The translations under genes and the position numbers were made by a program. From the NCBI GenBank assembly GCA_030141605.1, contig JAQGDQ010000044.1, positions 558,001-622,000 of the forward strand: 64,000 nucleotides of DNA, given 5' to 3'. Numbering within the stretch: the first letter of the stretch is position 1; each line of letters begins with the position of its first letter. Below the pieces are notes generated by a model that was not told the DNA's origin, ran no database searches, and was given only the letters and a program-made list of their open reading frames with translations. This document shows positions 6,243 to 59,554 of the stretch, in pieces. Source of the DNA: Tubiluchus corallicola (Eukaryota; Animalia; Priapulida).

Positions 6243-6470
6243 AGAGAGGGCGAGAGAAACAAAGCGAAAAAGAGAAGAGCATGAATGAGAGAAATATGGT
6301 TTAAGAGAAACAGAGGGAGACAAACAGAAAGCCAGGGAGAGGCGAGGGCTTATAAAAATTTTCATGATACTTATTGGTGTTTCAGAAAATGAAAATCGTT
6401 GACATCTTGGAACAGAAACAAAAATAGAGTGGGTGGAAAAGTGCAGTAATATGACTGGGTTACTCACAAG

Positions 6471-9029
6471 ATGCGGCTGCAGTTAGTTTCGAACTTGGGT
6501 GAGCTTTTGGAGGTCCAAATGGAGCCCGCAGAACTCTTTGCTGACACCAGAAAACGATGCAAGAGCTTTGGAGACACAATAGGCAATGACAAGAACTTCA
6601 TGTCAAAGAAAAGACATGGCAGCCAAAGAGTAACACCTAAAGAAAGACAGAAAGCTTTGGATGATGCCTTGCTAGAAGCAGCTTACTGTGGACAGGTGGA
6701 AAATGTGAATAAGTGGATTACAGATGGAGCAAGTATCGATTGTATTTCTGAAATGCACAGCAATCGTTATGAATATGAAGAGAAAGGAGGAACTCCACTG
6801 CACATAGCTGCTGCAATGGGTCATACTGATGTGGTCAATAGACTGCTAGATATGGGTGCTAAAATAGAGAGTACCAGAAACAATGGCTGGAGACCATTAG
6901 AACTAGCTTGCAGGAAAGGCCATGCGGATGTAGTGGAAACGTTGCTAAATCGCTGTGCTAATATTCATTGTACTCAAATAAACGACGATAGTACACCATT
7001 ACACCAGGCTGCTTGGTGCGGTCAACCTGAAGTTACAGAGGTGCTCATTGAACATGGTGCCAAAGTAAATTGGCATAATCTTCAGAATACGACTCCTCTA
7101 GATGACGCTACAAAACAAGGACATACGTCCATTGTGGAAATTTTGATAAGAAATAGTGCAAGTGTAAATGTGAAGAATTATCGTGGTAATACACCACTGC
7201 ATCACGCAGCATGGGAAGGACATGTAGATGTCGTGAAACTTCTCATTAATAATGGTGCAAATATCCATGCAAAGAACTACATGCGAGAAACGCCTTTGAA
7301 TTTAGCTTGTAAATGGGGTAATATTGACGTGATAAATGTATTATGTGAAGAAATTAAAAATCAAAGTTCCTACAGTGGTAGCATCAAGCAAGTTTTGAAC
7401 ACTGTAAATGTAACTGGAAATACGAATCTTCACCTTGCTTGTATCAATGCCCATAACGTTGATACAAGCGTACAAACTGTGGTAGACCTTTTAGATAAAG
7501 GAGTTGACGCTAATATAATGAATTACAAAAACAAAACTGTGTACGATATGTGCACAAAGCCTTTAGGAAGAACACCAGTTAACAAAGCTCAAAAGAAAAT
7601 TGCTGGTGTCTTGGTTACGCACAAGTACTTTGGCAGATTTCGGGATATGCATGCGGAAGATCTTGTGAAGGATCCAGAACATGATTTTTTAATAGGAAAC
7701 AACAAGTGTTCCTTGATCGATCTTGTAAATCTTCCGGGAATAGGATTGCTGCAAGATTTTGAAGAATTTGACATTGTGCGTGAGACGCTGGAAGACCTAC
7801 TACAGACTGTTTGCAATAAGATGAATGAGATATCTCTGGTGCAGTGCAAATCATTGCTGATTGGTAGTGCATCTTGTGGTATGAAGATTGGCCAGCCCGA
7901 CGAATTTGATTATTTTATAGTAATAGAAAATCACCCACATCTTCTAGTCAATGTATTAAATGTGAATAATGTAATAGGTGCCAAAGTTTCTGAAAAGCAG
8001 CAGAATGTTTGTATGTTGCCAGTAAACCTCAAAGAACTGTTCATGCGGACGTTGTGTACCGCCGTGGCAGCTGTCCTTAATTTAAAAGTGACGAAAGAAA
8101 GAGTAATTCCACAAGACTTTCCCTTTGTTGTTGAGTGGAATAAAATCTGTACGTGTTTCAAATTGCTGGTTAAAATCAAAAGTGGGAAATTTCGTCCAGT
8201 TTCGGTTGATGTAACACCATGTATTGAAAGCATTGGGAAGCCACCGGGATCTAATATTAGCTGGCCAGTCTTCGTTAACTGCTATCATTTTATACCTAAG
8301 CCACTTGGTAAAGGTAAACAGTCGAAATTGTATTGTTCTGCATCAATAGCAGTGACCGAGTCTCTGTTCCTTTTCAGTCTTGATGACAGCATCAAAAGAG
8401 GTGGCTGTCTTGTTAAGGTTTTAGTGAAACCTGTTATTTATGGAGGCACTGTAAATAACAGAATAGCAAAAAACCTGAAAGGCCGGGCAGCAAGAAGGCA
8501 TAGCAAACTGCTCTCGGCAAAAGTTAACTTGCCAAAACTTTTTAGCGCCTTGAAGTACGAACCTGATCAACTGATCGATTCCTATATGATCAAGTTGGCT
8601 TTTATAAGAGAAGCGATAGAAAGACCTGCTGGTGAAGACTGGCTTGGAGAAGACGACCTTAAAAATCGAGCAGTGTCCATATTTTCCTACATCAAAGAGT
8701 GTTGTGACAAAGAGCTGATGCCGCACCCATTTGTGCCACACCTCAATGTCTTTCACGAACTAAAAGATAAACGGTTAAGCAACATACCGATTTTGGTTTT
8801 GGCGGGCAAGTGCGCTGCCGCAATTGCTGGTCTAGTCGAGTCGGGCAACGTTCCAACACGGTCAGGATTGATTCAACCTGACGTTGAAGAATTTGAAGCG
8901 AAACTTGTTGATGAAATAAATAACAACATGCAGGCCGACCACAAACCAGAAGCCACCGAATGGATTAGGGCCCTGTGGAAGCCAATCGTGGACACAGATG
9001 CTCAGTTATTAGTTTCTTGTGTTAGGTGA
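6471..9029 (+). CDS. Ankyrin-repeat cGAS-like receptor (ANK + Mab21/cGAS nucleotidyltransferase, cGLR)
   Basis: 852-aa uninterrupted ORF. About 8 ankyrin repeats (GGTPLHIAA, RPLELAC, TPLHQAA, TPLDDAT, GNTPLHHAA, ETPLNLAC, GNTNLHLAC). NTase signature LIGSASCGMKIGQPDEFDYFIVI, third acidic residue in VSVDVTPCI, and Mab21 C-lobe motifs IDSYMIK and MPHPFVPHLNVF. The true start could involve an upstream exon. Confidence 0.9.
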   Translation: MRLQLVSNLGELLEVQMEPAELFADTRKRCKSFGDTIGNDKNFMSKKRHGSQRVTPKERQKALDDALLEAAYCGQVENVNKWITDGASIDCISEMHSNRYEYEEKGGTPLHIAAAMGHTDVVNRLLDMGAKIESTRNNGWRPLELACRKGHADVVETLLNRCANIHCTQINDDSTPLHQAAWCGQPEVTEVLIEHGAKVNWHNLQNTTPLDDATKQGHTSIVEILIRNSASVNVKNYRGNTPLHHAAWEGHVDVVKLLINNGANIHAKNYMRETPLNLACKWGNIDVINVLCEEIKNQSSYSGSIKQVLNTVNVTGNTNLHLACINAHNVDTSVQTVVDLLDKGVDANIMNYKNKTVYDMCTKPLGRTPVNKAQKKIAGVLVTHKYFGRFRDMHAEDLVKDPEHDFLIGNNKCSLIDLVNLPGIGLLQDFEEFDIVRETLEDLLQTVCNKMNEISLVQCKSLLIGSASCGMKIGQPDEFDYFIVIENHPHLLVNVLNVNNVIGAKVSEKQQNVCMLPVNLKELFMRTLCTAVAAVLNLKVTKERVIPQDFPFVVEWNKICTCFKLLVKIKSGKFRPVSVDVTPCIESIGKPPGSNISWPVFVNCYHFIPKPLGKGKQSKLYCSASIAVTESLFLFSLDDSIKRGGCLVKVLVKPVIYGGTVNNRIAKNLKGRAARRHSKLLSAKVNLPKLFSALKYEPDQLIDSYMIKLAFIREAIERPAGEDWLGEDDLKNRAVSIFSYIKECCDKELMPHPFVPHLNVFHELKDKRLSNIPILVLAGKCAAAIAGLVESGNVPTRSGLIQPDVEEFEAKLVDEINNNMQADHKPEATEWIRALWKPIVDTDAQLLVSCVR

Positions 9030-14956: not shown

Positions 14957-15695
14957 ATGAATATGCAAGATGTCGTCGAGCTGTTTAACTCAGCCTACGA
15001 ATCATCTCTTATCATAACTTGGTAATGATGCAGTGTCGATTATACAAATTTACAATTAAGTAAATTTTGATACTAAACTTTAAATACAGAGTTCAAAAAA
15101 GTCGTAATGCCGCTTGGATGTGAAGCAGCAATTTTATGCTTACAATCTGACTCAAATCCAGACTGTATTCTAACCTTTTCTCATTTCCTGTATTCCAAAT
15201 TTAATTTAGTATCAAAATTTAATTAATTGTCGGTTTGTATTTATTGACAATTGACTATATATTCTAAATACTAATTATTAAAATCTTCATTTAAATGACT
15301 AAAATAACTAACGGTAGCGATTTTGTAATATTTGTTTTTTCAATAAGTGTTTGTTTTCTAATGTCACTATATTTCAAAATTAAAATTGTATGTATGTTTT
15401 GATTTTCTTGTATTGTATGGATTTTTGGCATTAATAAATATACAAATGTAAATATAGCATCCTTTTGGGATGAAGATTATAAAAAATAACTCGTGATACT
15501 TCATGTTTTCGTTTGCATTTTTAAACTATTACACAAGTATAGCCTATACAGAGACAGAGAGAGGGTAGGCCAGCGACTTATCATGATTGTCAATCGTCAT
15601 ATAGGGCATACAGTTTTTCTCTTTACTACGCAGCTTAAGAATACATTATAATTTTCAATTTTTTATTTTTCTTTCATTGCAGGTGTTGGTTGAAC

Positions 15696-16115
15696 ATGAA
15701 CTACATTTTCCTTGTACTACTGTCCTTCTTGGGACTTTCGCTGGGCTTTCCAACCAACGTACGGTACAGAAGTTGGTTCCACCGACAACCGCAACAGCAG
15801 CAACAACTACAACAGCAGCAACAGCAACAACATCAGCAACCTGCGTGCTCTTACAGCGCTCCAGTCATCAATATCGTTTTCAACGTGAACGGCAGGAAAG
15901 CAAGTGTTGATCGGGGCGAAGTTGGCATCCCGCCTATAGCTCCACCTAGTTTCGTACCACCACCTACTTTTAAAGCAATTCCTGTGACTGATCCCCCTAT
16001 GATACAATTTTTTACAACCGAAAAGGAGCCCTCGATTCACCCGTTTGTCATTGGCGACACTGGAAACGTCATTGCGAACCCAGGAACTATAGAAGACAGG
16101 GAAGAAGTAGGCTAA
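15696..16115 (+). CDS. small secreted Gln-rich/Pro-rich protein (139 aa), unknown function
   Basis: Strong acceptor (ttttctttcattgcag, AG at 15681-82) then ATG at 15696. Signal peptide MNYIFLVLLSFLGLSLG|FPT, poly-Q tract, Pro-rich tail. GC higher than flanks. Candidate 5'UTR exon donor CAG|GTAAGA at 13957. Confidence 0.75.
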   Translation: MNYIFLVLLSFLGLSLGFPTNVRYRSWFHRQPQQQQQLQQQQQQQHQQPACSYSAPVINIVFNVNGRKASVDRGEVGIPPIAPPSFVPPPTFKAIPVTDPPMIQFFTTEKEPSIHPFVIGDTGNVIANPGTIEDREEVG

Positions 16116-17312: not shown

Positions 17313-17967
17313 GTTAGATGCTTCTGTTATGCAGCATAGCGCCACTCATAATCTTATTTAATTGACGCCTATTTGTTTCCTGACCTGCTGCCACATGATA
17401 AGTGTCTAAGTAACTAAGGCTTGGCAGTAAAAAATTATCACAAAACGCCATACAATCTCTTTAACAGCAAACAGTTGCCCTTGACAACCAGTTCATGGTA
17501 AATTGCCCTTTAAGTTGTCACTCATATATGGTAACCAAAGCTTGATACTATTAAATGCAAAAAATGATTCAAACTTATTGACACTGCAGTTGCTAAAATT
17601 TACTGATAAACAGTTGTTATGGCAACCTGCTTATGGTAAATTACGTTTTAAATTACTTGCCGTATGATTAGATTAGGTCTGAATTATGTTACAGGTAAAA
17701 TACCTTCAAATTTGATTAAGAAGATGAGTCACAGTTACCCAATTTTGAATACTCTGGGCTATTGTGTTTTATTTAAAAAAACAAATATTGCAAACGTGTA
17801 AAGTCCACATTACTGCAAACATCTAAGGAAGTTGAGTCCACTTTTATCATGGATAAGATTTTGCCTTTCTCTGTGCACCCACGAGATGGTGCCTGATGGC
17901 ATATCAGGATCTTGTACACTTCAAACTAGGGGTGCTACAGGGTTCTGTCTAATTGTCGAAGTGTAAT

Positions 17968-18472
17968 TTATTTTAATAGACTTGAAGTGTAAGTTACTTT
18001 AATACACTTGAAGTGTAAGTTACTTTAATAGACTTGAAGTGTAAGTTACTTTAATAGACTTGACGTATTAGTTACTTTAATAGACTTGAAGTGTTAGTTA
18101 CTTTAATAGACTTGAAGTGTAAGTTACTTTAATAGACTTGAAGTGTAAGTTACTTTAATAGACTTGAAGTGAAAGTTACTTTAATAGACTTGAAGTGTAA
18201 GTTACTTTAATAGACTTGACGTATTAGTTACTTTAATAGACTTGAAGTGTTAGTTACTTTAATAGACTTGAAGTGTAAGTTACTTTAATAGACTTGAAGT
18301 GTAAGTTACTTTAATAGACTTGAAGTGAAAGTTACTTTAATAGACTTGAAGTGTAAGTTACTTTAATAGACTTTACGTATTAGTTACTTTAATAGACTTG
18401 AAGTGTTAGTTACTTTAATAGACTTGAAGTGTAAGTTACTTTAATAGACTTGAAGTGTAAGTTACTTTAATA
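17968..18472. repeat. 26-bp minisatellite (GACTTGAAGTGTAAGTTACTTTAATA), ~19 copies
   Basis: Tandem array seen directly; variant units recur every 156 bp. Confidence 0.95.
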
Positions 18473-19859
18473 AAGTGAATGAATAATAGATCTGTTAAAC
18501 TGTTATGATTATATTTAAGTTTCAGGCAAATTCAATTAAATATTTTTAATCATTTAATATAGTATCAAGTTCATTTATCGCATACTGAACATAAACAATC
18601 ATGAAGTCTGTGCGAAAATGTACATGGCAGATTAATTATTAATCACTAATAACAAATCAGACAGAGGAGACCTTGGTAAGGGCGATACCGCCGCATTTTG
18701 CTAAGGCCATGTTTTTGAAAAAAACAAAAGATAAAAGGGTTGGGGATAAAAAGGGGAGGAAAAGAGGGATGGTAATAGAAAGGCAAGAGATATACGATGC
18801 CATAATAATGATATGTTTGACAATGATGATGATGATAACAATAACAATAATGGTAATGCAGTCAGGCCACAATCAGGTAATGCTATCCAGCGATCAACAT
18901 CAGCAATGCGCGCACTTTCTGCATAGTGTAATTCTGTCGCAAAATTAATAATTCTGTTACGCAGGCTTTGCTTTCTGGTGCTTTTCAAGTGGTAGTGGGA
19001 CACCGTTGTGTGTCGTCAGGTGATGCAAGGCTGATACATCAGTCAGGCGTGCTTTTGCACAAGAGAGACCGAGAGCACAGCAACAACAACGTGGTATGTA
19101 CGATTAAATTTGACTTCATGATTACATTGGAATGGTTGGGAATGATTTGCTATGGAAATTTGGGAAGGAATGGCGCTGAAATTCCTACTTGGTAAACTTA
19201 AAACAAATTGCTTCAATAAGGAATAATAACACGACAAGATAAACATAGAGTAAAATAAATGCTGCTGTTTTCGGTCTGTGTCGTGTGGAGTTGTGCCGTG
19301 ATGTGATCATTGACCAAGTATGACAATATGCCAAACTAGAAACTCTCCAGTTACAAAGCAACAGGCGCGCACTCTTTTCTTGAGCCTTGTGCAGGAGTCT
19401 TTTTGTTAGTCAGTTACTGGTGCAAATTGATCTCCCCACATCAGTAGATGTCAGTCATGCCAAATAAGGGCATACCATCTCAGTTATTATTGAATATTAA
19501 CAGGATTATGTCATTCTCACCCTGTCTGCGCCGTGGGATCTTGCAAACCGGCTTCTTCGGATCATTCCAGAATGAGCTTCCAAATCTGAATGTCCAATTA
19601 ACAATATGTCATATTGATCCATCAGTTACGCAGTTTCCGTTACTCATAGCAAAGAAATTTATTTTGGGCGTTTCCTTGTACATCCATTCTGTTTTTGTCT
19701 GTGGGTTTGTAACGCTCCTATGGATAGCTACTGGGATAGCCAAAACGTGTAAAATGAATTTTTTGGCTACGTTGATTGCGTTGTTGATGATATCATTTCT
19801 TATCAATTACTTCAATTCCCGCCCTAACAAGAGAAATGAGTTTGTATTATCAAGCTTTA

Positions 19860-23329: not shown

Positions 23330-23620
23330 ACTAGGCAACTCATTGTCATCTTTATGGAAGTGTTTAACTCGGTAGATTAACTAATTCTGCTTTGTAAGTT
23401 CAACTATTAGTGTTTTAATAAAATTCTATATCTTTCATTTCTAATTACTGTACCACTATTGAACAGTTTGCTAAATTTACAGCTTAATAATTTGGTCCTT
23501 GTGATATTGTAGCTGGTGTTCTTCAAGGTTCTATCATCGGCCTTGCCCTATTTTTAGTGTGTATCAACGATATGAGTTTTGTTCGTAATTTGTTTAAGGT
23601 TATTATGTATGCTAACAAAA
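23330..23620 (+). mobile_element. CR1/L2-type LINE reverse transcriptase relic
   Basis: GVLQGSIIGLALFLVCINDM...VIMYAN at ~23515-23616, versus consensus GVPQGSILGPLLFLIYINDL...LYADD. Confidence 0.75.
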
Positions 23621-24485
23621 TGCCATCAATGCTGCTATCACTTCCCCCTGTGTCTACCCCTGCCGACACACCACTATTCTCACCTTCCTCCCGCTCATGA
23701 TCACTTTCATAACGATTGCTTGGAACTACTGATCTTAAACGCCTGATGCCAACTTTGATGTTTTTATGTTATTTGACTCACTTCGTGTCGTTAACGCTTA
23801 TTTTGGTCATTGTCTTTATGTCTGCGGATGTTTCTTTTTTTACTAGTTGGTAAGATCACCTACGAGGCTACGACTGCAGGGCCAGCTCATCCTTCCAATC
23901 TTTTTAGCCAAAATTTTAGCCACAGCCCTTTTGTTATTCATTTTTGTATTATGAGTCACGTTATAATGAAAAAGGTTAAAGTACGGAGGAGGTATTCATT
24001 TGCCAAAATTTTAGCCACTTGATATTTTCTTTAGCCGTCCTGACTAAACTTATGGCTTTTCGTTATAACGCAAGTGGGCTCTGGACAGTCTTATCTTAGA
24101 ATGGTTGATCATGATGGTTCATGCACAACTTAACTTCTGAATCCCAAACTCAAGTGCGATTACTGAATCTAAGAGTGGTAGTGTGTTGTTTTCCAGGTAA
24201 AGTCTATAGCAACAGTAGGATAGATGTTACACCTCTGGCCGATTTCCCGGGGGGGTGGGGATTTCCCCGGGGGGGTGGGGAAAAACACCCCTAAAAAAGT
24301 GCGAAAATCCACGAAAACCCCTAAAAAAGTGTGAAAACCCGTGTGAAAGTGCGCACGTGACCGAAATCGACGAAAAAGCGCGAAAAACAAAGAAAAACGA
24401 AGAAAAGGCGTGTGAAACGAGGTAAAAATTTTGCAGTTTTTCCCTCCCGCATGGCTTCATTTGGATCGAATGACCTTGAACTCTA

Positions 24486-24497
24486 GGTCACGTGACC
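24486..24497. promoter_or_regulatory. perfect E-box palindrome GGTCACGTGACC (USF/MiT-TFE type) in the element's subterminal region
   Basis: Seen directly; mirror copy at 28749-28760, second GCACGTGACC at ~24353-24362, adjacent TGACCT/AGGTCA half-sites. Function untested. Confidence 0.4.
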
Positions 24498-24560
24498 AAA
24501 GTTCATTGACCCCTGGCCCCTGGATGGCTTCTTTTTTTGACGCCCCATTTTAAACCGCGC

Positions 24561-24650
24561 GAAAGCGCGCGAAAGTGTATGAAAGCGCGTGAAAGCGTGT
24601 GAAAGCGCATGAAAGCGTGTGAAAGTGTGTGAAAGTGTGTGAAACGAGGT
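24561..24650. repeat. 10-bp subterminal tandem repeat GAAAG(C/T)G(C/T)GT, ~9 copies (mirror at ~28603-28690)
   Basis: Seen directly in both arms. Confidence 0.9.
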
Positions 24651-24945
24651 AAAAAGCGCCTCAAACGAAGAAAAAAGGGAGAAGTGGAGTTCCCGCCGAG
24701 GACTAATTAGTGCTAATTGGCGCTAATTGGGGAGCCCCTGCCACCCCTCCGCCGCATGCAAACGTCCGTCCCGGGGGTCGGGGACACCCCCCTGCAACCC
24801 ACCCCTCCGTCGCGTGGAATCGTCCACTGCAGGCAATGAGGGAAATCTTTTTCCCGCCACTCGCGCAGTGCCGGCCCTTTTCCGCGACCACTTCTCTCTC
24901 TCGGGTGCCCTCCCTTTTCCGCGACCACTTCTCTCGCGGGTTTAG

Positions 24946-24983
<38 letters not shown>

Positions 24984-25259
24984 GGAGATTTATTTCAAAT
25001 GCCAAAGTTTGATAAATGCATTTTCACAAATCTTTTTTATTGATGGATTACAGGTGTGGAGATTTATTTCAAACGCCAAAGTTCGATAAATGCATTTTCA
25101 CAAATCTTTTTTTATTGATGGATTACAAAAAATTTTTTTACATTTTTTATGCAAAATACATACGTGCTAAAACTAGATTATTATTATTATGGTGACATGA
25201 TAGTTCTACATTTTACGTTTTTTTCGCAAATTACACAAATTATGCAAATTACAATAAAA

Positions 25260-25856
25260 CTACACTAATGACGACGAGCGAGTACATGGATTGTCGTCGT
25301 CGTCGTCGATGTGATACAGACAAACGTTATTGATGTTAAAAACGAATTCGTTAAATTTGCGGAAAACGCGAGAGAAATCCTCGACCTTTGTCCCGCCCAT
25401 CATTATTATGCTTCCGGTGTGAAAAATGTTCAGAGTAATTTGCTCGCATTTGCAAGTTAGTTTGGGAAATAGTTCCACTTCGTAAAACACTTCTCTAAAA
25501 GAATGCGTCGAAGGACGAACGAGTTCTTCGTACAGTGCACCCAGTTTCAATCTGCAGTGAATTTTGGCTCTGGCGGTGATGGTGCGAATTGCGATCCCGT
25601 CGGCGGGCGTCAGTCCGAGACCTTTCGAGAGTTCTTCGATCGCATTGCGTAGTACTTTTTCCTCCGAAAAACCGTTGGCCACCACGGAGCCGGAGGCAAA
25701 AATCATCAGCGTCCCGCCCAGTCGCTTTAGCAGAACCATTTGCGGTTTCCTTTCGTAGCGTCTTCCGCCCGTTCTCCGCCAGAGTTCGTTCAGATCGAAG
25801 CGCTGCGAGAACGAAGCAGTGGCGACGATGTTGACCGTTTGGACTGACACGTTAGA
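25260..25856 (-). CDS. TBP-fold (TATA-binding protein-like) protein, left-arm copy; 5' end unresolved
   Basis: Two TBP repeats: VQTVNIVATASFSQRFDLNEL...TLMIFASGSVVANG and IRTITARAKI..RLKLGAL...FYEVELFPKLTCK..ITLNIFHTGSIIMMGG. The frame is open up to 26294 but has no in-frame ATG before the domain. Confidence 0.8.
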   Translation of the reverse strand, partial: SNVSVQTVNIVATASFSQRFDLNELWRRTGGRRYERKPQMVLLKRLGGTLMIFASGSVVANGFSEEKVLRNAIEELSKGLGLTPADGIAIRTITARAKIHCRLKLGALYEELVRPSTHSFREVFYEVELFPKLTCKCEQITLNIFHTGSIIMMGGTKVEDFSRVFRKFNEFVFNINNVCLYHIDDDDDNPCTRSSSLV

Positions 25857-26302
25857 ACGTAGTTGGCAATCGTTTCGGACGCCCGAATCGCTCTGCCTCG
25901 CCCGTTGCTCTGCCAACGTATGGCGGGCGGCGGGTGCTCGCTTTCCAGATCTTCTACGCGTATGACCACGCGATTTTTGGGGAGATGTTTTTTGACGAAA
26001 TCGTACATCTCTGCTCCCTTGACGTAGGTGATCCTGCCTCTGGTGGTCTGTCGTAGAATGTTTTCCAATTCTGCGTACTCGATCATTCCCTCCTCCCACG
26101 AGATGCCGTGTATGTGTCTGATTAGGTAGTTGTAGGTGGATCGCTTGTGCTGGGGAACGCGATTCCAGGGGTGGGGCGGTTTGAAGGTGTAGTTGTGATA
26201 TATGCCGGTCTCTATTTCGCGAATTACCAAATTTTTGACCAGGTATTCTTCTTTTCCGCACTGGAAGGCATCTACGGTGAGAACTATGCTCGATTCAGAC
26301 AT
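25790..26302 (-). CDS. DnaQ/DEDD-like nuclease-fold protein (170 aa), left-arm copy
   Basis: ATG-initiated. Motifs VLTVDAF..YLVKNL..YTFKPPHPW..YL..HIHGISWEEG.I.Y..L..IL..TYVKG match a family I recall from invertebrate Maverick/Polinton-like insertions (xDxQGF..KEL..FKPP..HGL.W..G..YVKG). Not searched. Confidence 0.65.
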   Translation of the reverse strand: MSESSIVLTVDAFQCGKEEYLVKNLVIREIETGIYHNYTFKPPHPWNRVPQHKRSTYNYLIRHIHGISWEEGMIEYAELENILRQTTRGRITYVKGAEMYDFVKKHLPKNRVVIRVEDLESEHPPPAIRWQSNGRGRAIRASETIANYVLTCQSKRSTSSPLLRSRSASI

Positions 26303-26744
26303 CTGTGACGATGGGGGGTCCTTCTACGCCGTCGGCAACGAGTTTTCCTTCGATGACGATTTGCTTGTGATTGTTCACAAATTCCAGAGACTTGATTTTT
26401 TCGAAGGTGTATTTTTTTATGACCTTGTTGGGGGCACTCTTGCGTGCGTTGGCGCGCTTGCCGCCCCGCGTCCCCGCTTGTTGTTGTTGCTTGCGAGGAA
26501 CGGTGGTTAGAGGTTGTTTGAAATCCTGCAAGAGAAGAAGAACAATAGTTATAGTATTGTTGTTCGCTAACGACAACTAGGCATTTTTGATGAGCCATTC
26601 TTTCAGATTTCTAGGTTTTTTGGGGGCAGTGGGGGTGAGCACCATCGGCGGCGATGGAGGGGGCGTCGCGGAAATTACGAGTTTGTCTTCTTCTTTATCA
26701 TCATCTTTCTCCTCTTCCTCCTCCTCCTCTCGAAAGATGTCCAT
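26295..26744 (-). CDS. putative spliced small protein (acidic N-terminus, basic C-terminus), exons 26744-26679 and 26525-26295
   Basis: ATG at 26744 (MDIFREEEEEEEKDDDKEEDKL), donor CTC|GTAATT at 26678, strong acceptor TTGTTCTTCTTCTCTTGCAG at 26526. The join is in frame to DFKQPLTT...PPIVTDV*. The unspliced frame ends at 26577. Only the 3' part is present in the right arm (26835-27041). Confidence 0.45.
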
Positions 26745-27033
26745 TCGTGTCCCTCTCTCGCGTCTGCTTTTACACGGAGGGGCGGAGGTGCCGACGTCCG
26801 TGTCTGGCAGACTTCTTTCCGTCCAGTTTGTCCAGTTCCTCGCAAGCAACAACAACAAGCGGGGACGCGGGGCGGCAAGCGCGCCAACGCACGCAAGAGT
26901 GCCCCCAACAAGGTCATAAAAAAATACACCTTCGAAAAAATCAAGTCTCTGGAATTTGTGAACAATCACAAGCAAATCGTCATCGAAGGAAAACTCGTTG
27001 CCGACGGCGTAGAAGGACCCCCCATCGTCACAG

Positions 27034-27546
27034 ATGTCTGAATCGAGCATAGTTCTCACCGTAGATGCCTTCCAGTGCGGAAAAGAAGAATACCTGGTCA
27101 AAAATTTGGTAATTCGCGAAATAGAGACCGGCATATATCACAACTACACCTTCAAACCGCCCCACCCCTGGAATCGTGTTCCCCAGCACAAGCGATCCAC
27201 CTACAACTACCTAATCAGACACATACACGGCATCTCGTGGGAGGAGGGAATGATCGAGTACGCAGAATTGGAAAACATTCTACGACAGACCACCAGAGGC
27301 AGGATCACCTACGTCAAGGGAGCAGAGATGTACGATTTCGTCAAAAAACATCTCCCCAAAAATCGCGTGGTCATACGCGTAGAGGATCTGGAAAGCGACC
27401 ACCCGCCGCCCGCCATACGTTGGCAGAGCAACGGACGAGGCAGAGCGGTTCGGGCGTCCGAAACGATTGCCAACTATGTTCTAACGTGTCAGTCCAAACG
27501 GTCAACATCGTCGCCACGGCTTCGTTCTCGCAGCGCTTCGATCTGA
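27034..27546 (+). CDS. DnaQ/DEDD-like nuclease-fold protein (170 aa), right-arm copy
   Basis: Mirror of 25790-26302 with 3 aa differences (E/D, I/V, L/R). Start overlaps the upstream stop (ATGTCTGA). Confidence 0.65.
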   Translation: MSESSIVLTVDAFQCGKEEYLVKNLVIREIETGIYHNYTFKPPHPWNRVPQHKRSTYNYLIRHIHGISWEEGMIEYAELENILRQTTRGRITYVKGAEMYDFVKKHLPKNRVVIRVEDLESDHPPPAIRWQSNGRGRAVRASETIANYVLTCQSKRSTSSPRLRSRSASI

Positions 27547-28076
27547 ACGAACTCCGGCGGAGAACGGGCGGAAGACGCTACGAAAGAAAACCGCAAATGC
27601 TTCTGCTAAAGCGACTGGGCGGGACGCTGATGATTTTTGCCTCCGGCTCCGTGGTGGCCAACGGTTTTTCGGAGGAAAAAGTACTACGCAATGCGATCGA
27701 AGAACTCTCGAAAGGTCTCGGACTGACGCCCGCCGACGGGATCGCAATTCGCACCATCACCGCCAGAGCCAAAATTCGCTGCAGATTGAAACTGGGTGCA
27801 CTGTACGAAGAACTCGTTCGTCCTTCGACGCATTCTTTTAGAGAAGTGTTTTACGAAGTGGAACTATTTCCCAAACTAACTTGCAAATGCGAGCAAATTA
27901 CTCTGAACATTTTTCACACCGGAAGCATAATAATGATGGGCGGGACAAAGGTCGAGGATTTCTCTCACGTTTTCCGCAAATTTAACGAATTCGTTTTTAA
28001 CAACAATAACGTTTGTCTGTATCACATCGACGACGACGACGACAATCCATGTACTCGCTCGTCGTCATTAGTGTAG
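27480..28076 (+). CDS. TBP-fold protein, right-arm copy; 5' end unresolved
   Basis: Mirror of 25260-25856 with 5 aa differences, intact frame. AATAAA at ~28225. Confidence 0.8.
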   Translation, partial: SNVSVQTVNIVATASFSQRFDLNELRRRTGGRRYERKPQMLLLKRLGGTLMIFASGSVVANGFSEEKVLRNAIEELSKGLGLTPADGIAIRTITARAKIRCRLKLGALYEELVRPSTHSFREVFYEVELFPKLTCKCEQITLNIFHTGSIIMMGGTKVEDFSHVFRKFNEFVFNNNNVCLYHIDDDDDNPCTRSSSLV

Positions 28077-29492
28077 TTTTACTGTAATTTGCATAATTTG
28101 TGTAATTTGCGAAAAAAACGTAAAATGTAGAACTATCACGTCACCATAATAATAATAATAATCTAGTTTTAGCACGTATGTATTTTGCATAAAAAAATGT
28201 AAAAAAAATTTTTTGTAATCCATCAATAAAAAAGATTTGTGAAAATGCATTTATCGAACTTTGGCGTTTGAAATAAATCTCCACACACACACACACACAC
28301 ACACATCTAAACCCGCGAGAGAAGTGGTCGCGGAAAAGGGAGGGCACCCGAGAGAGAGAAGTGGTCGCGGAAAAGGGCCGGCACTGCGCGAGTGGGGGGG
28401 GGGAAGATTTCCCTCATTGCCTGCAATGGACGATTCCACGTGACGGAGGGGTGGGTTGCAGGGGGGGTGTCCCCGACCCCCGGGACGGACGTTTGCACGC
28501 GGCGGAGGGGTGGCAGGGGCTCGCCAATTAGCGCCAATTAGCACTAATTAGTCCTCGGCGGGAACTCCACTTCTCCCTTTTTCTTCGTTTGAGGCGCTTT
28601 TTACCTCGTTTCACACACTTTCACACGCTTTCGCGCACTTTCACACACTTTCACGCGCTTTCACACACTTTCACATGCTTTCGCGCGGTTTTGCGCGGTT
28701 TAAAATGGGGTGTCAAAAAAAGAAGCCATCCAGGGGTCAATGAACTTTGGTCACGTGACCTAGAGTTCAAGGTCATTCGATCCAAATGAAGCCATGCGGG
28801 AGGGAAAAACTGCAAAATTTTTACCTCGTTTCACACGCCTTTTCTTCGTTTTTCTTTGTTTTTCGCGCTTTTTCGTCGATTTCGGTCACGTGCGCACTTT
28901 CACACGGGTTTTCACACTTTTTTAGGGGTTTTCGCGGATTTTCGCACTTTTTTAGGGGTGTTTTTCCCCACCCCCCCGGGCAGCCAAAGGGGGGGTGGGG
29001 AAATCGGCCAGAGGCAAAACATCTATACTACTGAGGCCGAAATACCTGGGAAAGTTAAAGTTGTCCAAAAGTCCTGTAAGACCTTCACGACCTGGTAGAA
29101 CCAGTACTTGACAATAATTATTGAAATTATCTCTTTTACTGCATTTGTCACAGACTGGCAATGTTTAAAGCATGTGACGCAAATTGTGGCCTTCAACTAT
29201 AGGTGACAGTAGGAAATTGTAATAAAACCCATCGACCTGTTTTTGTGACTTGATTATAGCTTTTTAATATAAGGCTTAGTTCTAAAAATCCTAACGTTGA
29301 TTGGGATAATATGTACAAAACATCCAGGTTACAGAATTCTTGAGATTCGAACACCAAACTATCACTGTCCGTTTGTTTTGGATTTTTTTTTGTAAAAAAT
29401 AAACCAAAACAGGTACACCAGGGGAAAGTAATTTTTGTTATTATAATGGTTATTCTCGCGGTGATTTCCAAATAGTTGTTTTCTTTTTATAG

Positions 29493-43595
<14,103 letters not shown>

Positions 43596-45314: not shown

Positions 45315-47663
45315 AGTGTGCATGTCACGTTTAATTTTAGGTTATTGAGGCAAACATCACTTAGACTAGTACAGCAGTTTTTATTCGTTAATTTATAAAA
45401 GAGGTATATTTAAACTTTAGTCAATTATATTCAAAACATTAACGCAGTTACGTACTTAAGGCCTAAACTAATTGTAAGAGAGAAATTTTTAGACGATGCC
45501 ACTGCATACATAAACCATAGGGAATACAGTAATATCAAATTTAATTATCGTCTTTTTATTCAGATTTTCAATTTAGAATAAACACTTGGCACTCACGACC
45601 AAGTGGTCACTAAGCTAACTGTGTTAAACCAATGACACACGGCCGCCAAAACACACAAACCCGCCGACGTCGGCCATGATAACTCTCCTTAACAGGGCTG
45701 TCTCTCCCATTAATGCAAACCAGGCAGTTGCGCAGGGCACCAAATTTTGGTTGGCGTCAAATTCTGGAAGTAATTATTTCATTTTGAAGTTTAGCTTAAG
45801 TAATAACATAGCGTATGTGTAATAACATAGCTTAAGTAATAACATTGTGTATGTGTAATAACATAGCTTAAGTAATAAAATTGTGTATGTGTAATACCAT
45901 AGCTTAAGTAATAACATTGTGTATGTGTAACATAGATTAAGTAATAGCATTGTGTATGTGTAGTAATATAGCTTAAGTAATAACATTGTGTATGTGTAAT
46001 AACATAGCTTAAGTAATAACATTGTGTATGTGTAATAATATAGCTTAAGTAATAACATTGTGTATGTGTAATAACATAGCTTAAGTAATAACATTGTGTA
46101 TGTGTAATAATATAGCTTAAGTAATAACATAGCGTATGTGTAATAACATAGCTTAAGTAATAACATTGTGTATGTGTAATAATATAGCTTAAGTAATAAC
46201 ATAGCGTATGTGTAATAACATAGCTTAAGTAATAACATTGTGTATGTGTAATAATATAGTTTAAGTAATAACATTGTGTATGTGTAATAATATAGCTTAA
46301 GTAATAACATTGTGTATGTGTAATAACATAGATTAAGTAATAACATTGTGTATGTGTAATAACATAGATTAAGTAATAACATTGTGTATGTGTAATAACA
46401 TAGCTTAAGTAACAACATAGCGTATGTGTAATTCTTTAAGTGCGCAACACTAATCAAACGAAACGAACCATAATCTTTCTGTCGAAATGGATAATTCATC
46501 GATGCTAGGAAGTTAATTCCTACAGCAAAACACTTTCTAGTTTAGTTTTATTTGTATTTCTAAGATTACATCATTCCACTCAGACATTTCTTGCGCGTGA
46601 TTTTGCAAGCATTTTCTATTCTATGCATCGAGCAGCCTCGCTACGTAAGTGCTTATTGTAATGACCCTTACGTTAATAAACACTTCTTTCTATAGCATTT
46701 GTCTAATTATGCCAAATAAACTTACAAGAGTCGAAGTGTTTAGGAGCGGAATTATACAGGAAATGAAAAGCAAGAAAGCTAGCGGGTGACGGGTGGCGGG
46801 TGGCGACAATGAACAGCAGAAAGATTCGCCAGTGAAGCATTTGCAACAAAACCAGAGTTATGAAGCAGATGAAGCTAGTGAAATGGATGTACACGAAGAA
46901 AGAAGTTAAAGTTTCAAGGATTTCCTGACGAATAGCTGAGGGAAAATCTAAACAAGAAGAGCTGAAATCACAGAAATTTGATTGCTCCTGTAATAGGGTT
47001 ATAAAGTCAGTTTCAAATTTAGTCAACACAATACAAGCTGTAGATAGGTAATTGACCACACTTAATTAGTTCACTATCACACATGCATAAGTCTAACACA
47101 CAGGTACCATTATACTTTATTATAATATCATACAAGAAAAATTCAAATTTGCTGATGCTGTGTGAACCGGGGTGGAAGGGGTTGACCGTTGTTCAAATTC
47201 CGTCAACACAGCACAAACTGTAGATCTATCACACATGCATAAGCCTAACGCACAGGTAGCATTATACTTTACTATAATATTATACAAGAAAAATTCAATT
47301 TTGCGGGTGCTGTGTGGACCGTGGAAGGGGTTGACCGTTGAAGAGGGGGCGCTAAAACTAATTTTCCCTAAGGCCTACTAAGGAAAATTGTGTTAGCCAT
47401 GACCCCTTAGATCTGAATAAAAAGACGATACTTCAATTTGATATTACTGTACACCACATGGTTTATGTATGTATTTTAAATTTCTCTCATGCAATTAGCT
47501 TAGGTCTTAAGTACGTAATTGCGTTAATGTTTCGAACAGACATCAAAAATAATTCACTAAGAGTTTAAATATACCTGTTTTATAAATTAATAAATAAATA
47601 CTGCTGTACTAGTCCAAGTGATTTTTGCCTCTGTAATTTAAAATTAAACGTGATATGCACACT
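45315..47663. repeat. ~250-bp diverged inverted repeat pair (45315-45565 / 47410-47663) enclosing ~1.85 kb
   Basis: For example AGTGTGCATGTCACGTTTAATTTT pairs with AAAATTAAACGTGATATGCACACT, and TATCGTCTTTTTATTCAGAT pairs with ATCTGAATAAAAAGACGATA. Confidence 0.75.
45792..46431. repeat. 36-bp minisatellite (AGCTTAAGTAATAACATTGTGTATGTGTAATAACAT), ~18 copies
   Basis: Tandem array seen directly. Confidence 0.95.
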
Positions 47664-54100: not shown

Positions 54101-57100
54101 AATACGTTTCTTATTTTTGATGAAAATAATTGGTACTAATAACGCTATTTAAAAGTTGAATTATCAGTGAATGATAAATTATTATGTAGAAGATAACCGC
54201 CCTGCAGGTCAAGTGACTAACCTCAAAATTGTCCTTGAAATCTATCATCTACTACCATTAATCCTTGCAAAGCGCCTTGTGTAAAAAACATCTCTGGTTA
54301 TTTGTGCTCAAAGAGAAAAAGCTTCTCATAATATTCTTGATTTCTAAATGCAGGTTTAGTGATTATTTACCAATGATGACTTATCACCTTAATGGAATAT
54401 GGAACAAACACGCTGGTCATGGAAGTCCTTTGCATCCTCACTCCTACGATGTGGACAAAACTGCGAATATTGTAAGTGAAGAGGTCGCCTTTGAAATATC
54501 TTTGTTTTTAGTAATTTCAGTTAAGTGTAAGACAACTTGGAAAATCACACACAAGCAAGGGCAGCATTTTTGTGTCATGTGTGTGAAAGGGATAAATTAT
54601 TGGAAAATCACGGAAGCACTTTTGAGACTAATAGCTATGAAGATGCGGTATGATCGTTTTCCTTAGATAACCTAGTAATCTTCCATGCCATATAGTGTTC
54701 CTTGGTTTTTAGGGTACTTGGATAACCTAATAATCTTCCATGCCATGTAGTGTTCCTTAGTTTTTAGTGTACTTGGATAACCTAATAATCTTCCATGCCA
54801 TGTAGTGTTCCTTAGTTTTTAGTGTACTTAGATAATCTAATAATCTTCCATGCCATATAATGTTCCTTAGTTTTTAGTGTACTTAGATAACCTAATAATC
54901 TTCCATGCCATGTAGTGTTCCTTAGTTTTTAGGGTACTTAAATAACCTAGTAATCTTTCATGTCATATAGCGTTCCTTAGTTTTTAGTGTACTTAGATAA
55001 TCTAATAATCTTCCATGCCATGTAATGTTCCTTAGTTTTTAGTGTACTTAGATAATCTAATAATCTTCCATGCCATGTAATGTTCCTTAGTTTTTAGCGT
55101 ACTTAGATAATCTAATAATCTTCCATGCCATATAATGTTCTTTAGTTTTTAGTGTACTTAGATAATCTAATAATCTTCCATGCCATGTAGTGTTCCTTAG
55201 TTTTTAGTGTACTTAGATAATCTATTAATCTTCCATGCCATGTAGTGTTGCTTAGTTTTTAGTGTACTTAGATAATCTAATAATCTTCCATGCCATGTAG
55301 TGTTCCTTAGTTTTTAGTGTATTTAGATAATCTAATAATCTTCCATGCCATATAACGTTCCTTAGTTTTTAGTGTACTTAGACAATCTAATAATCTTCCA
55401 TGCCATATAGCGTTCCTTAGTTTTTAGTGTACTTAGATAATTTAATAATCTTCCATGCCATATAGCGTTCCTTAGTTTTTAGTGTACTTAGATAACCTAA
55501 ATCCTATTATCGTTGCTTTTTTTTAAGGAATTCATCGTCCAATATTGGATAAACCATGGAACGGATCCAAAGAAATTGCTGCTGGGAATTCCTCTTTTTG
55601 GACAGACTTACACTCTCCAAGACCCATCTGACCACATGTTAAATGCACCTATTGTAGGAAGTGGCAAGGCTGGACACATGTATCAACAGGAAGGAATGAT
55701 GCCGTACTACGAGGTTTGTGCCCACAAAACTTTGCTTGAGCTTATTCTTATTAAGATTTTCGGCTTCTTGTGGATTGGTAAACACCAATCTTATTACTGC
55801 TTAAGTGATAGATTTAGCCAACTGAACAACTGATAATGCTTCTTGCGAATATTTTTTGAATGACTTACAGATCTACGTCTTCACTCATAATAAATGAATA
55901 AATTACGACAAAATTTGCAGATTATAAAGATTCGCAAATCTGTTTCGGAAAATTCACAAACATTTTAATGGTACCAATGTGCGGCATTTGTCACATTTGC
56001 AAATAAATAAAAATTGTGGTTTATTTCTATTAATTTTAATGACTTGCATTACTTAAATCTTTTGTAGGTGTGTTCTGAAGTGATGCCAAGCTATGAAAGC
56101 TTTTGGGTTGAAGATCAGCTTGTTCCATTTGCTTACAAAAATGACCAATGGATTGGCTACGAGGATTCAAGGAGTATTAGTGAAAAGGTAACAATCCTTT
56201 GCAGTATATTTGGACAAGTTCTAGAACTTCCATCACCAAACTTTCACTAATTTTTTTGTACGTATTGTTGACCACAGTTAGCATTCAACTGGTTACTGAT
56301 CACCAACTTTTGTAATTTTTGCAACGCATTTGCATGTTATCAACGGGCCTCATTTTTCCCTGACTGACAATAGGGTTCGTCTAACTAGTTTTTGTTTGTA
56401 GGTCAAGTATGTGATCGACAATCACCTTGGAGGCGTTATGGTCTGGGCATTAGGTTTTGATGATTTTAAAGGTCATTGTAATCATGGAAGGAATCCTCTG
56501 TTGACCACAATAAAAACAGAATTGCTGGAAGTGACACAGGTGACCTATGTAATCCACACAAAATCTTCAAATGTTTTACAGCAGTTGCCGCACAAGTATG
56601 AAACGGGTGCAGTAGAACCACATTATGCAACATCACATCACGGTGAGACGTACAGGCGTCATACTGTGCAACATCGGCGACACTACGTACAACATGTATC
56701 CCATCAGCAAGAAGGACAACACCCTGTTCATGGATATGATGAGCACCATGCCTACCATGGGCACAGTCGCAGTCGCAGAGTGGAGTCATCATATTCACGG
56801 CACGGGAATTATCACGATGCGTATCCTCATCAAACACAAGGAAGTTACATACCATATCAAGAACACGAAATGATTCCCCACGAAACGTACAATTACGAAA
56901 CATATCCACACAGAGATGCATATGAAGTCTACCCTAGCAACAGCTATCCTTATGACGCTCACAATTATGTAATATATCTGCCGGAGCAGTATGACGTGCA
57001 CCCTCATCAAACACATGAGAATTACGGTGCATATTCAGCACATGGACAGTATGATGATTTCGAAGTACATCCTCGTGAAAGTTCTGAAATATATCCAGTA

Positions 57101-59554
57101 AACGAGCCGCATGCGTACCCTTATGAAAAAAGCAATTATTACGATACTTACCCTGGGTCTGAACTCTATGAAGTTCATCCTTATGAAAGTTATGGTTATG
57201 AAACACACCCTGATGAACTGTATGCTGAACATGGACATTATGAAGGGCATCCTCGTGAAACATACCCTGAACATGGACATTATGAAGGGCATCCTCGTGA
57301 AACATATCCTGAACATGGACATTATGAAGGGCATCCTCGTGAAACATACCCTGAACATGGACATTATGAAGTGCATCCTCGTGAAACATACCCTGAACAT
57401 GGACATTATGAAGTGCATCCTCGTGAAACATACCCTGAACATGGACATTATGAAGTGCATCCTCATGAAACATACCCTGAACATGGACATTATGAAGTGC
57501 ATCCTCGTGAAACATACCCTGAACATGGACACTATGAAGTGCATCCTCATGAAACATACCCTGAACATGGACATTATGAAGTGCATCCTCGTGAAACATA
57601 CCCTGAACATGGACATTATGAAGTGCTTCCTCATGAAACATACCCTGAACATGGACACTATGAAGTGCTTCCTCATGAAACATACCCTGAACATGGACAC
57701 TATGAAGTGCATCCTCATGAAACATACCCTGAACATGGACACTATGAAGTGCATCCTCGTGAAACATACCCTGAACATGGACATTATGAAGTGCATCCTC
57801 GTGAAACATACCCTGAACATGGACATTATGAAGTGCATCCTCATGAAACATACCCTGAACATGGACATTATGAAGTGCATCCTCATGAAACATACCCTGA
57901 ACATGGACATTATGAAGTGCTTCCTCATGAAACATACCCTGAACATGGACACTATGAAGTGCATCCTCATGAAGCGTACCCTGAACATGGACACTATGAA
58001 GTGCTTCCTCATGAAACATACCCTGAACATGGACACTATGAAGTGCATCCTCATGAAACATACCCTGAACATGGACACTATGAAGTGCATCCTCGTGAAA
58101 CATACCCTGAACATGGACATTATGAAGTGCATCCTCGTGAAACATACCCTGAACATGGACATTATGAAGTGCATCCTCATGAAACATACCCTGAACATGG
58201 ACATTATGAAGTGCATCCTCATGAAACATACCCTGAACATGGACATTATGAAGTGCTTCCTCATGAAACATACCCTGAACATGGACACTATGAAGTGCAT
58301 CCTCATGAAACATACCCTGAACATGGACATTATGAAGTGCTTCCTCATGAAACATACCCTGAACATGGACACTATGAAGTGCATCCTCATGAAACATACC
58401 CTGAACATGGACACTATGAAGTGCATCCTCATGAAACGTACCCTGAACATGGACACTATGAAGTTCATCCTAATGAATTATATCCTCATGAAGAGTATCC
58501 TGAACATGGACACTATGAAGTGCATCCTCATGAAACGTATCCTGAACATGGACACTATGAAGTGCATCCTCATGAAGAGTATCCTGAACATGGACACTAT
58601 GAAGTGCATCCTCATGAAACGTATCCTGAACATGGACACTATGAAGTGCATCCTCATGAAACGTACCCTGAACATGGACACTATGAAGTGCATCCTCATG
58701 AAACGTATCCTGAATATGGACACTATGAAGTGCATCCTCATGAAACGTACCCTGAATATGGACACTATGAAGTGCATCCTCATGAAACGTACCCTGAACA
58801 TGGACACTATGAAGTGCATCCTCATGAAACGTACCCTGAACATGGACACTATGAAGTGCATCCTCATGAAACGTACCCTGAACATGGACACTATGAAGTG
58901 CATCCTCATGAAACGTACCCTGAACATGGACACTATGAAGTGCATCCTCATGAAACATACCCTGAACATGGACACGATGCATATGAAAGCTATCCAGGCC
59001 ACTATGATACGTATCCATCACATGTTTCCACAGTTGGTATTCCATTTCCACACCATACAGCTTATTCTTATGAAGGGTATCCTACAAATCAATCCTATGA
59101 ACAATATCCACGTAATACTTACAACGATTATGAATTACCTGGTACTGTTGGACACGAGACATATCCCAGTAATACTCATGGGGGCGAAAGCCTTGGCCCA
59201 GTAGTTGCCCAGGAAGAGCAGAGGCCATATAATCCAGAATTGGAGGAAACAAAACTTTCGGATTCCGGTTCATCTGCTTCTGGAAGAAACGGCGCTGTGG
59301 GAATGGCTACAGAAAGTACGCAATGTGAGGTGAAAGGACCAGGTCCCTCTTGCTCCGGACATTCGCACATGGTAATGGCAAATCCAATAAACTGTCGCAA
59401 GTACTATCTATGTCTGTGGCAGAACACACCCAATGAAATGCGTGTTCCAATGAACTGCCCGGAGGGAACAGTCTTTCATCCATTCAAATACATGTGTGAT
59501 GATAAGGAAAATGTTGATACATCCGTAATATGTAAATGTGGAGAAGAGTCGTGA
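49927..59554 (+). CDS. secreted GH18 chitinase/chitinase-like protein with long His/Glu/Tyr/Pro repeat linker and C-terminal CBM14 chitin-binding domain
   Basis: Phase-consistent exons 49927-49996 (signal peptide MQGIGVCLVLVLLAGLSS), 51330-51521, 53460-53722, 53965-54089, 54354-54471, 55528-55713, 56068-56187, 56402-59554. GH18 motifs CTHIVFGYA, KVLLAVGGW, FDGLNVDWEFP, KLLLGIPLFG, WIGYED, LGGVMVWALGFDDF. CBM14 pattern C..NPINCRKYYLC..NCPEGTVF..MCD..C. Confidence 0.92.
54660..55500. repeat. 55-bp intronic minisatellite, ~15 copies
   Basis: Unit AGATAATCTAATAATCTTCCATGCCATGTAGTGTTCCTTAGTTTTTAGTGTACTT; fills most of chitinase intron 5. Confidence 0.95.
57226..58976 (+). repeat. 42-bp coding minisatellite (ETYPEHGHYEVHP[H/R]), about 40 copies
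   Basis: Seen directly within the last chitinase exon. Confidence 0.97.

Follow-up and report, generated by a model that had tools for sequence, protein, structure and literature searches.

A near-palindromic insert of 4819 bp in the genome of the priapulid Tubiluchus corallicola likely represents one parental end of a Maverick present twice, in mirror image. It occupies positions 24214..29032 of the 64,000-nucleotide stretch of contig JAQGDQ010000044.1 that we analysed, hereafter the window. Judged by its ends and its gene content, as compared with distant homologs, the element is a non-autonomous Maverick derivative and not an autonomous member. We give a probability of about 0.4 to its having arisen by a template switch during the copying of a free linear element, followed by insertion in one piece that left no target-site duplication. 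Its features and host flanks are as follows.

24197..24213, plus strand: left host flank after an acceptor-like AG, tentatively the first 17 nt of a split host exon.
24214..29032, no strand: whole element, near-palindromic, GC about 49%, CpG-rich relative to the host.
24214..24219, plus strand: left terminus, five of the six bases of the Maverick (AGT)2 motif.
24214..26501, no strand: left arm, 2288 bp.
24214..25259, no strand: outer left arm, non-coding (about 1 kb), candidate for an original TIR of the parent.
25260..25859, minus strand: TBP-like gene, left copy, the domain starting without an ATG.
25790..26302, minus strand: 170-aa gene of DnaQ/DEDD fold, left copy, an open reading frame.
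26295..26576, minus strand: small open frame of 93 codons, crossing the border between left arm and spacer, with an acceptor-like AG before 26525.
26502..26834, minus strand: unique spacer, 333 bp, reading onward from the minus-strand genes of the left arm.
26577..26834, minus strand: 85 open codons with an acidic tract and no family match, presumably truncated.
26835..29032, no strand: right arm, 2198 bp, an inverted copy beginning inside the small open frame.
26835..27041, plus strand: right-arm copy of the small open frame, lacking its head.
27034..27546, plus strand: 170-aa gene of DnaQ/DEDD fold, right copy, of a Maverick/adintovirus accessory family.
27477..28076, plus strand: TBP-like gene, right copy (Pfam TBP, E 4.3e-22).
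28077..29032, no strand: outer right arm, non-coding, candidate for an original TIR.
28963..29003, minus strand: G/C hairpin near the right terminus, 15-bp stem (z -3.36, 0/200 shuffles).
29027..29032, plus strand: right terminus, exact (ACT)2 motif.
29033..29075, plus strand: right host flank before a donor-like GT, tentatively the last 43 nt of the same exon.

Within the animal-type, microsatellite-rich window, the element appears as a GC-rich island at 24-29 kb that consists of a single inverted repeat, with an observed-to-expected CpG ratio of 1.28 against 0.78 and 0.81 in the host. The coordinates and palindrome geometry given by an earlier, sequence-only reading of this DNA proved exact. 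The longest gap-free inverted pair, 25177-26501 and 26835-28159, measures 1325 nt with 15 mismatches (99% complementary), its halves lying 333 nt apart, and a gapped alignment of the arms extends to 24214 and 29032 with 43 mismatches in 2177 aligned bases. The symmetry ends exactly at 26501/26835, where that reading had placed its stop and past which no 7-mer inverted match carries the stem further; outward, it ends exactly at two AGTAG termini of Maverick type. Since it ends at these termini and the host flanks are unrelated to one another, both a folded read and a fold-back inside the chromosome, which would have copied host flank, are excluded. The outer left arm contains 10-bp repeats (24552-24644) and, on the left only, 37-bp and 74-bp repeats (24980-25127). 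No Rfam family was found in 23500-29800, and the 64-kb window holds no second copy of the element.

Both genes of the arms have relatives elsewhere. The TBP-like gene, scanned against Pfam in its right copy, matches solved TBPs down to E 2.7e-9, and its closest relative, P0001, is 59% identical. For the 170-aa gene, a HMMER search returned 644 relatives, the closest of which, P0002, is 62% identical; its best named viral matches are Drosophila adintovirus and ichnovirus proteins at ranks 2-5. None of 60 members of this family shows a consistent Pfam family, and its profile found no relative by sequence among solved structures; comparison of the modelled structure (pLDDT 92.6) points to DnaQ-type folds, that is, a DnaQ/DEDD exonuclease fold. 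P0001 and P0002 both lie on 1855-bp contigs, probably the same one, so the gene pair is probably present in another lineage.

The TBP-like frame overlaps the end of the 170-aa gene (27477-27546 on the right, 25790-25859 on the left) and its first ATG comes at about residue 41. The start of P0001 falls at the same residue, the overlapped tail is present in P0002 too, and AG acceptor-like sites precede the small open frame, the exonuclease ATG and the TBP domain. This arrangement suggests that the start is a conserved one, spliced or non-AUG, and not a sign of damage. A TBP-like gene is also named, for related linear DNA viruses, in a figure legend of PMC8502044.

A homolog of the 170-aa gene (E 3e-15, 26% identity) is encoded in L003 (1-9417), a partial Maverick/adintovirus contig together with genes for an integrase, an A32-type ATPase, a PLA2-like protein, a double-jelly-roll capsid protein and a tail-fibre-like repeat protein. 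In this distant contig, which shows no ends, the exonuclease-fold gene is single-copy and internal. The element itself has none of the core Maverick genes and no frame long enough for a polymerase or an integrase. The L003 integrase found nothing in the window as a query, and in a tblastn search of the window with 11 L003 proteins the exonuclease-fold gene was the sole match, with no capsid, ATPase or protease; this search and one with three terminal motifs gave no other Maverick remains there. Protein and DNA pattern searches of viral contigs, metagenome contigs and phages yielded no close relatives. Two candidate relatives, L001 and L002, were dropped, their matches lying in phage tail-type genes.

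The spacer appears to carry on from the left arm, as the sequence-only reading had proposed in calling it a continuation of that arm's minus-strand coding sequence. One minus-strand frame has a single stop in 111 codons, against five stops in each of the other two: it is open for 85 codons from the junction, stops at 26577, and is then open across 26501 into the small open frame. Two plus-strand frames are likewise nearly open (one and two stops), so openness by itself is modest evidence. The GC content of the spacer is 49.5%, next to 48.6% in the arm and mostly 30-43% in host DNA, and its A-over-T skew is that of the left-arm genes; by frame, strand skew and GC, the loop is colinear with the left arm. 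The symmetry had further been said to stop in mid-ORF. The frame is open across 26501 as described, but the 93-aa ORF has no ATG start, no homolog and no Pfam match, and its structural model is of low confidence, the sole structured part lying within the arm. Its first 17 codons resemble the end of an intron and include the best acceptor score among the 11 listed in the element. The 85-codon stretch at 26577..26834 probably represents the 3' portion of a gene interrupted at the junction. Neither the spacer ORF nor the small ORF matches the neighbours of the exonuclease-fold gene in L003. The spacer folds no better than its shuffles (z -1.38). We set aside a hairpin at 26762-26812 as a priming structure: it lies 22 nt from the break and has z -2.62 on the plus and -0.84 on the minus strand, over an interval picked post hoc.

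Maverick TIRs are given as 46-1447 bp in vertebrates in the available part of PMC8097293, and as 100-1500 bp in general in that of 10.1101/2023.08.22.554363. The gene-bearing arms, of 2288 and 2198 bp, exceed these published ranges, whereas the non-coding outer 1 kb or so falls within them. Because of the length of the arms, the TIR-like size of their outer part and the single, internal position of the gene in L003, it is likely that the element is one end present twice. The proposal of a duplicated element end, favoured by arm length, gene content and L003, thus keeps the grade of likely.

The two arms have not diverged evenly. Their outer parts differ by 31 mismatches in 868 bases (3.6%) and 11 gaps, the inner parts by 15 in 1325 (1.1%) without a gap (Fisher p 1.8e-4). 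A 10-bp tract with changes of CpG type holds 15 of the 31 outer mismatches; with the tract left aside, the rates are 2.1% versus 1.1% (p 0.09). Within the inner part, the innermost 549 bp contain one mismatch and the next 776 bp contain 14 (change-point p 0.035-0.057), the drop falling near 25950-26160, within the genes and off the border between coding and non-coding sequence. Differences of a structured kind include 74-bp and 7-bp duplications, CpG transitions and different terminal variants; several gaps are changes of one or two bases in runs, which could be slippage or sequencing error. Of 11 coding differences between the arms, 4 are synonymous (p 0.23; dN/dS 0.52), so that they look near-neutral, and CpG sites account for 6 of 11 transitions. 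The uneven divergence could have its cause in hypermutable repeats or in later conversion.

Known end motifs of Mavericks are (AGT)2//(ACT)2 or (AG)3//(CT)3 and their target-site duplications measure 5-8 bp, as far as the available text of PMC8097293 and, for the duplications, of 10.1101/2023.08.22.554363 goes. The first 18 bases of the element's two termini differ at four positions. At the place of the right-hand G/C hairpin, the left end has a direct repeat instead (z -0.94). A search over 13 x 14 end placements, for lengths of 5-7 bp and allowing one mismatch, gave no target-site duplication; in this search, an 8-bp duplication would appear as a shifted 7-bp match. As the arms have diverged by about 1%, such a duplication should have survived if it was ever made. 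No other repeat in the window matches the flanks; they share an 11-nt inverted match, which is equalled by 41 of 3000 random pairs and was set aside.

Joined to one another, the flanks form 60 stop-free nucleotides of phase 0-0 that fit the next exon-like piece at 29493, weak and tentative evidence that the element splits one host exon. In this test, with thresholds set post hoc, 71 of 20000 random cut pairs were equally good, and the exon has no confirming homolog. If the flanks are the halves of a single exon, they once adjoined, and the element came in as a unit with no duplication made; a split exon would thus count against two insertions joined by a deletion. The element probably entered the site as one piece, by a route that leaves no target-site duplication.

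The surrounding plus-strand host gene resembles a DH-PH RhoGEF, which we take to be PLEKHG7-like, and a chain of exon-like pieces belonging to that gene begins downstream of the element (plus strand: 29493-29594, 30612-30761, 31428-31523, 40603-40689, 41685-41813 and 42330-42425). A Pfam scan of eight exon-like pieces gave a weak PH match (E 2e-4) in one, and a further analysis lent the assignment no support. An acceptor-like AG in the right arm (28956-29075, plus strand) opens 40 stop-free codons in phase with the host donor, and the host gene could, to judge by this signal, splice through the insertion.

Elsewhere in the window, a single 859-codon frame (6450-9029, plus strand) with ankyrin repeats and a Mab-21 C-terminal domain is a possible ankyrin-bearing cGAS-like receptor, on its predicted domains. 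A long frame at 56402-59554 (plus strand) has dozens of 42-bp His/Tyr/Glu-rich repeats, then a terminal chitin-binding CBM14 domain; its start presumably corresponds to the end of a chitinase domain, which it resembles. An exon-like frame at 15683-16106 (plus strand) has a hydrophobic signal-like start and a glutamine run, with no Pfam match. A short stretch at 23515-23613 (plus strand) resembles what we take to be a decayed LINE reverse-transcriptase motif; a Pfam scan of it gave no match. Minisatellite arrays occupy 17828-18602, 45679-46539 and 54552-55621, with units of 26, 36 and 55 bp; a 102-bp inverted pair (45315-45416 and 47562-47663) flanks the 36-bp array.

The route that we favour is a copy-back during replication of a free linear element. 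A strand copied outside the chromosome would stop at 26834, re-prime on its complement at 26501 and be copied back outward to the terminus. Such a molecule would end in a complete terminus on both sides and carry the TBP-like and exonuclease-fold genes in mirror image; lacking polymerase, integrase and capsid genes, it would have to be copied by a full-length relative. It would then insert as one piece, by a route without target-site duplication. The uneven arms might mean that the switch joined two family members differing slightly in sequence, or that CpG decay, repeat slippage and central conversion came later. In favour of a copy-back are the end of the symmetry at two Maverick-type termini, the unrelated flanks, and coding differences between the arms that are near-neutral, as expected for decay after duplication.

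The simpler form of this idea, in the sequence-only reading, was a snap-back during strand displacement, deduced from the geometry and integrated in trans. The deduction does not follow, since TIR extension, end-joining of like ends and an off-centre deletion give the same junction, and geometry therefore does not pick a mechanism. Integration in trans would be expected to leave a 5-7-bp target-site duplication, and none is present at any of the end placements searched. Had the element copied itself in one step and then integrated normally, one would expect a duplication, matching ends and even decay, and none of these is cleanly seen: the duplication is missing, the termini are variant and the divergence is uneven. 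In the accessible part of PMC8235507, asymmetric snap-back genomes with a loop, described for AAV, are attributed to end-joining and not to template switching, so a loop does not identify the chemistry.

Repair in the chromosome could have extended the TIRs, as in the transposon Galileo. An integrated Maverick would break internally, its right end would invade the left TIR and copy inward through the genes to 26501, and rejoining of the left part at 26834 would end the process with the old outer TIRs kept. The junction geometry would be the same, and the route predicts older outer and younger inner arms, as seen, as well as a single insertion site, with which the data are consistent. Both the route and its TIR1-F1-F1-TIR2 product have been proposed for Galileo, and inverted-repeat expansion is said, on the authority of others, to be reported for Polintons (PMC3573991, in the part available). 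We nevertheless consider such an extension rather doubtful: it should retain the original target-site duplication, of which there is none; the drop in divergence, near 25950-26160, is placed within the genes and misses the border of coding and non-coding sequence; and the outer excess outside the 10-bp tract is not significant. It is also unlikely that the like ends of two separately inserted members were joined, either through loss of what lay between neighbouring inverted copies or through a crossover of copies, even if the missing duplication, the variant termini and the extra differences of the outer arms would be explained in one step. Chimeric Galileo copies do show divergent TIRs and non-matching flanks (available text of PMC3573991), clustered Polintons rearrange a locus in C. 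elegans (that of 10.1101/2024.01.15.575659), and the dN/dS of 0.52 between the arms leans towards selection. The excess of synonymous changes lacks significance, however, and no other Maverick remains were found in the window. Moreover, with flanks that look like the halves of one exon, both insertions would be needed at almost the same base, and randomly placed deletion breakpoints would rarely fall within 333 bp of symmetry.

A parent whose TIRs exceeded 2.6 kb and already contained these genes, or a longer palindrome, would make the element a product of off-centre internal deletion. Logically, exactly this geometry remains when a deletion runs from within one TIR to a position further distal in the other. 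Such TIRs would be longer than the 46-1447 bp and 100-1500 bp given above (for the part of those sources available), and L003 has a single, internal member of the gene family, even if that contig, at 26% identity, is a distant one without visible ends. The target duplication would also survive a plain deletion, yet it is absent, and we hold this origin to be quite improbable. Least credible, and by far, is an artefact of assembly or reading such as a fold-back chimera: the symmetry stops at the element's termini rather than in host DNA, the window is free of N, and the 74-bp and 7-bp duplications, the CpG transitions and the terminal variants go beyond what a folded read would contain.

A template switch on a free linear element is thus the reading that we carry forward, and its interest lies in how Mavericks are copied, which has been modelled and not observed. 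If a free linear form copied by strand displacement folds back now and then, it should yield a palindrome with two complete termini; with such elements, the replication model could be tested on genomes alone. That mirror geometry by itself is no proof of snap-back is shown by the missing target duplication, the variant ends and the stepwise divergence. Also of interest is the TBP-like gene next to the terminus. A more speculative extension, which we regard as improbable, would make the element a Maverick copy-back satellite, with two origins, doubled TBP-like and exonuclease-fold genes, a switch between family members and capture into a host coding exon without the integrase's usual duplication. 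Were it true, genomes would preserve in such elements a record of the free linear replication of Mavericks, and the mirrored genes could act on the helper or silence it. The fossil defective-interfering genome of the sequence-only reading stays speculative, the element being present once in the window; such a genome is defined by helper use, packaging and interference (see also PMC13506859, in the part available). In the titles and abstract openings covered by our literature search, we found no description of whole-element palindromic Mavericks; the accessible parts of PMC11161782, PMC3014272 and 10.64898/2026.07.28.741278 hold nothing on such a structure.

Compared with known systems, the element resembles Mavericks, Polintons and adintoviruses in its (AGT)2-type termini (PMC8097293, available part) and in an exonuclease-fold accessory gene common to L003 and, by fold, to Drosophila adintovirus 2. 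It differs from Mavericks, according to what is available of these sources, in its size (4.8 kb against 13-25 kb), in having no polymerase, integrase, ATPase, protease or capsid genes, and in its gene-bearing inverted arms of 2.2-2.3 kb without a target-site duplication. In the available portions of PMC3573991 and PMC4168063, 2RT and chimeric copies of Galileo recruit internal, even coding, sequence into non-autonomous inverted repeats; the chimeric ones have no matching target duplications and divergent ends, and the element shares such non-matching flanks and variant ends. Galileo, as described there, is nonetheless a cut-and-paste transposon of the P superfamily in Drosophila, and its recruited stretches measure about 0.07-0.5 kb, whereas the corresponding stretch of the element is about 1.25 kb long and holds two whole genes. 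With AAV snap-back and copy-back defective genomes, as the accessible text of PMC8235507 and PMC13506859 presents them, the element probably shares one end made self-complementary around a short unique loop. AAV is however a hairpin-primed single-stranded virus for whose snap-backs an origin by end-joining is favoured (PMC8235507, same part), whereas the element is a chromosomal insert with diverged arms.
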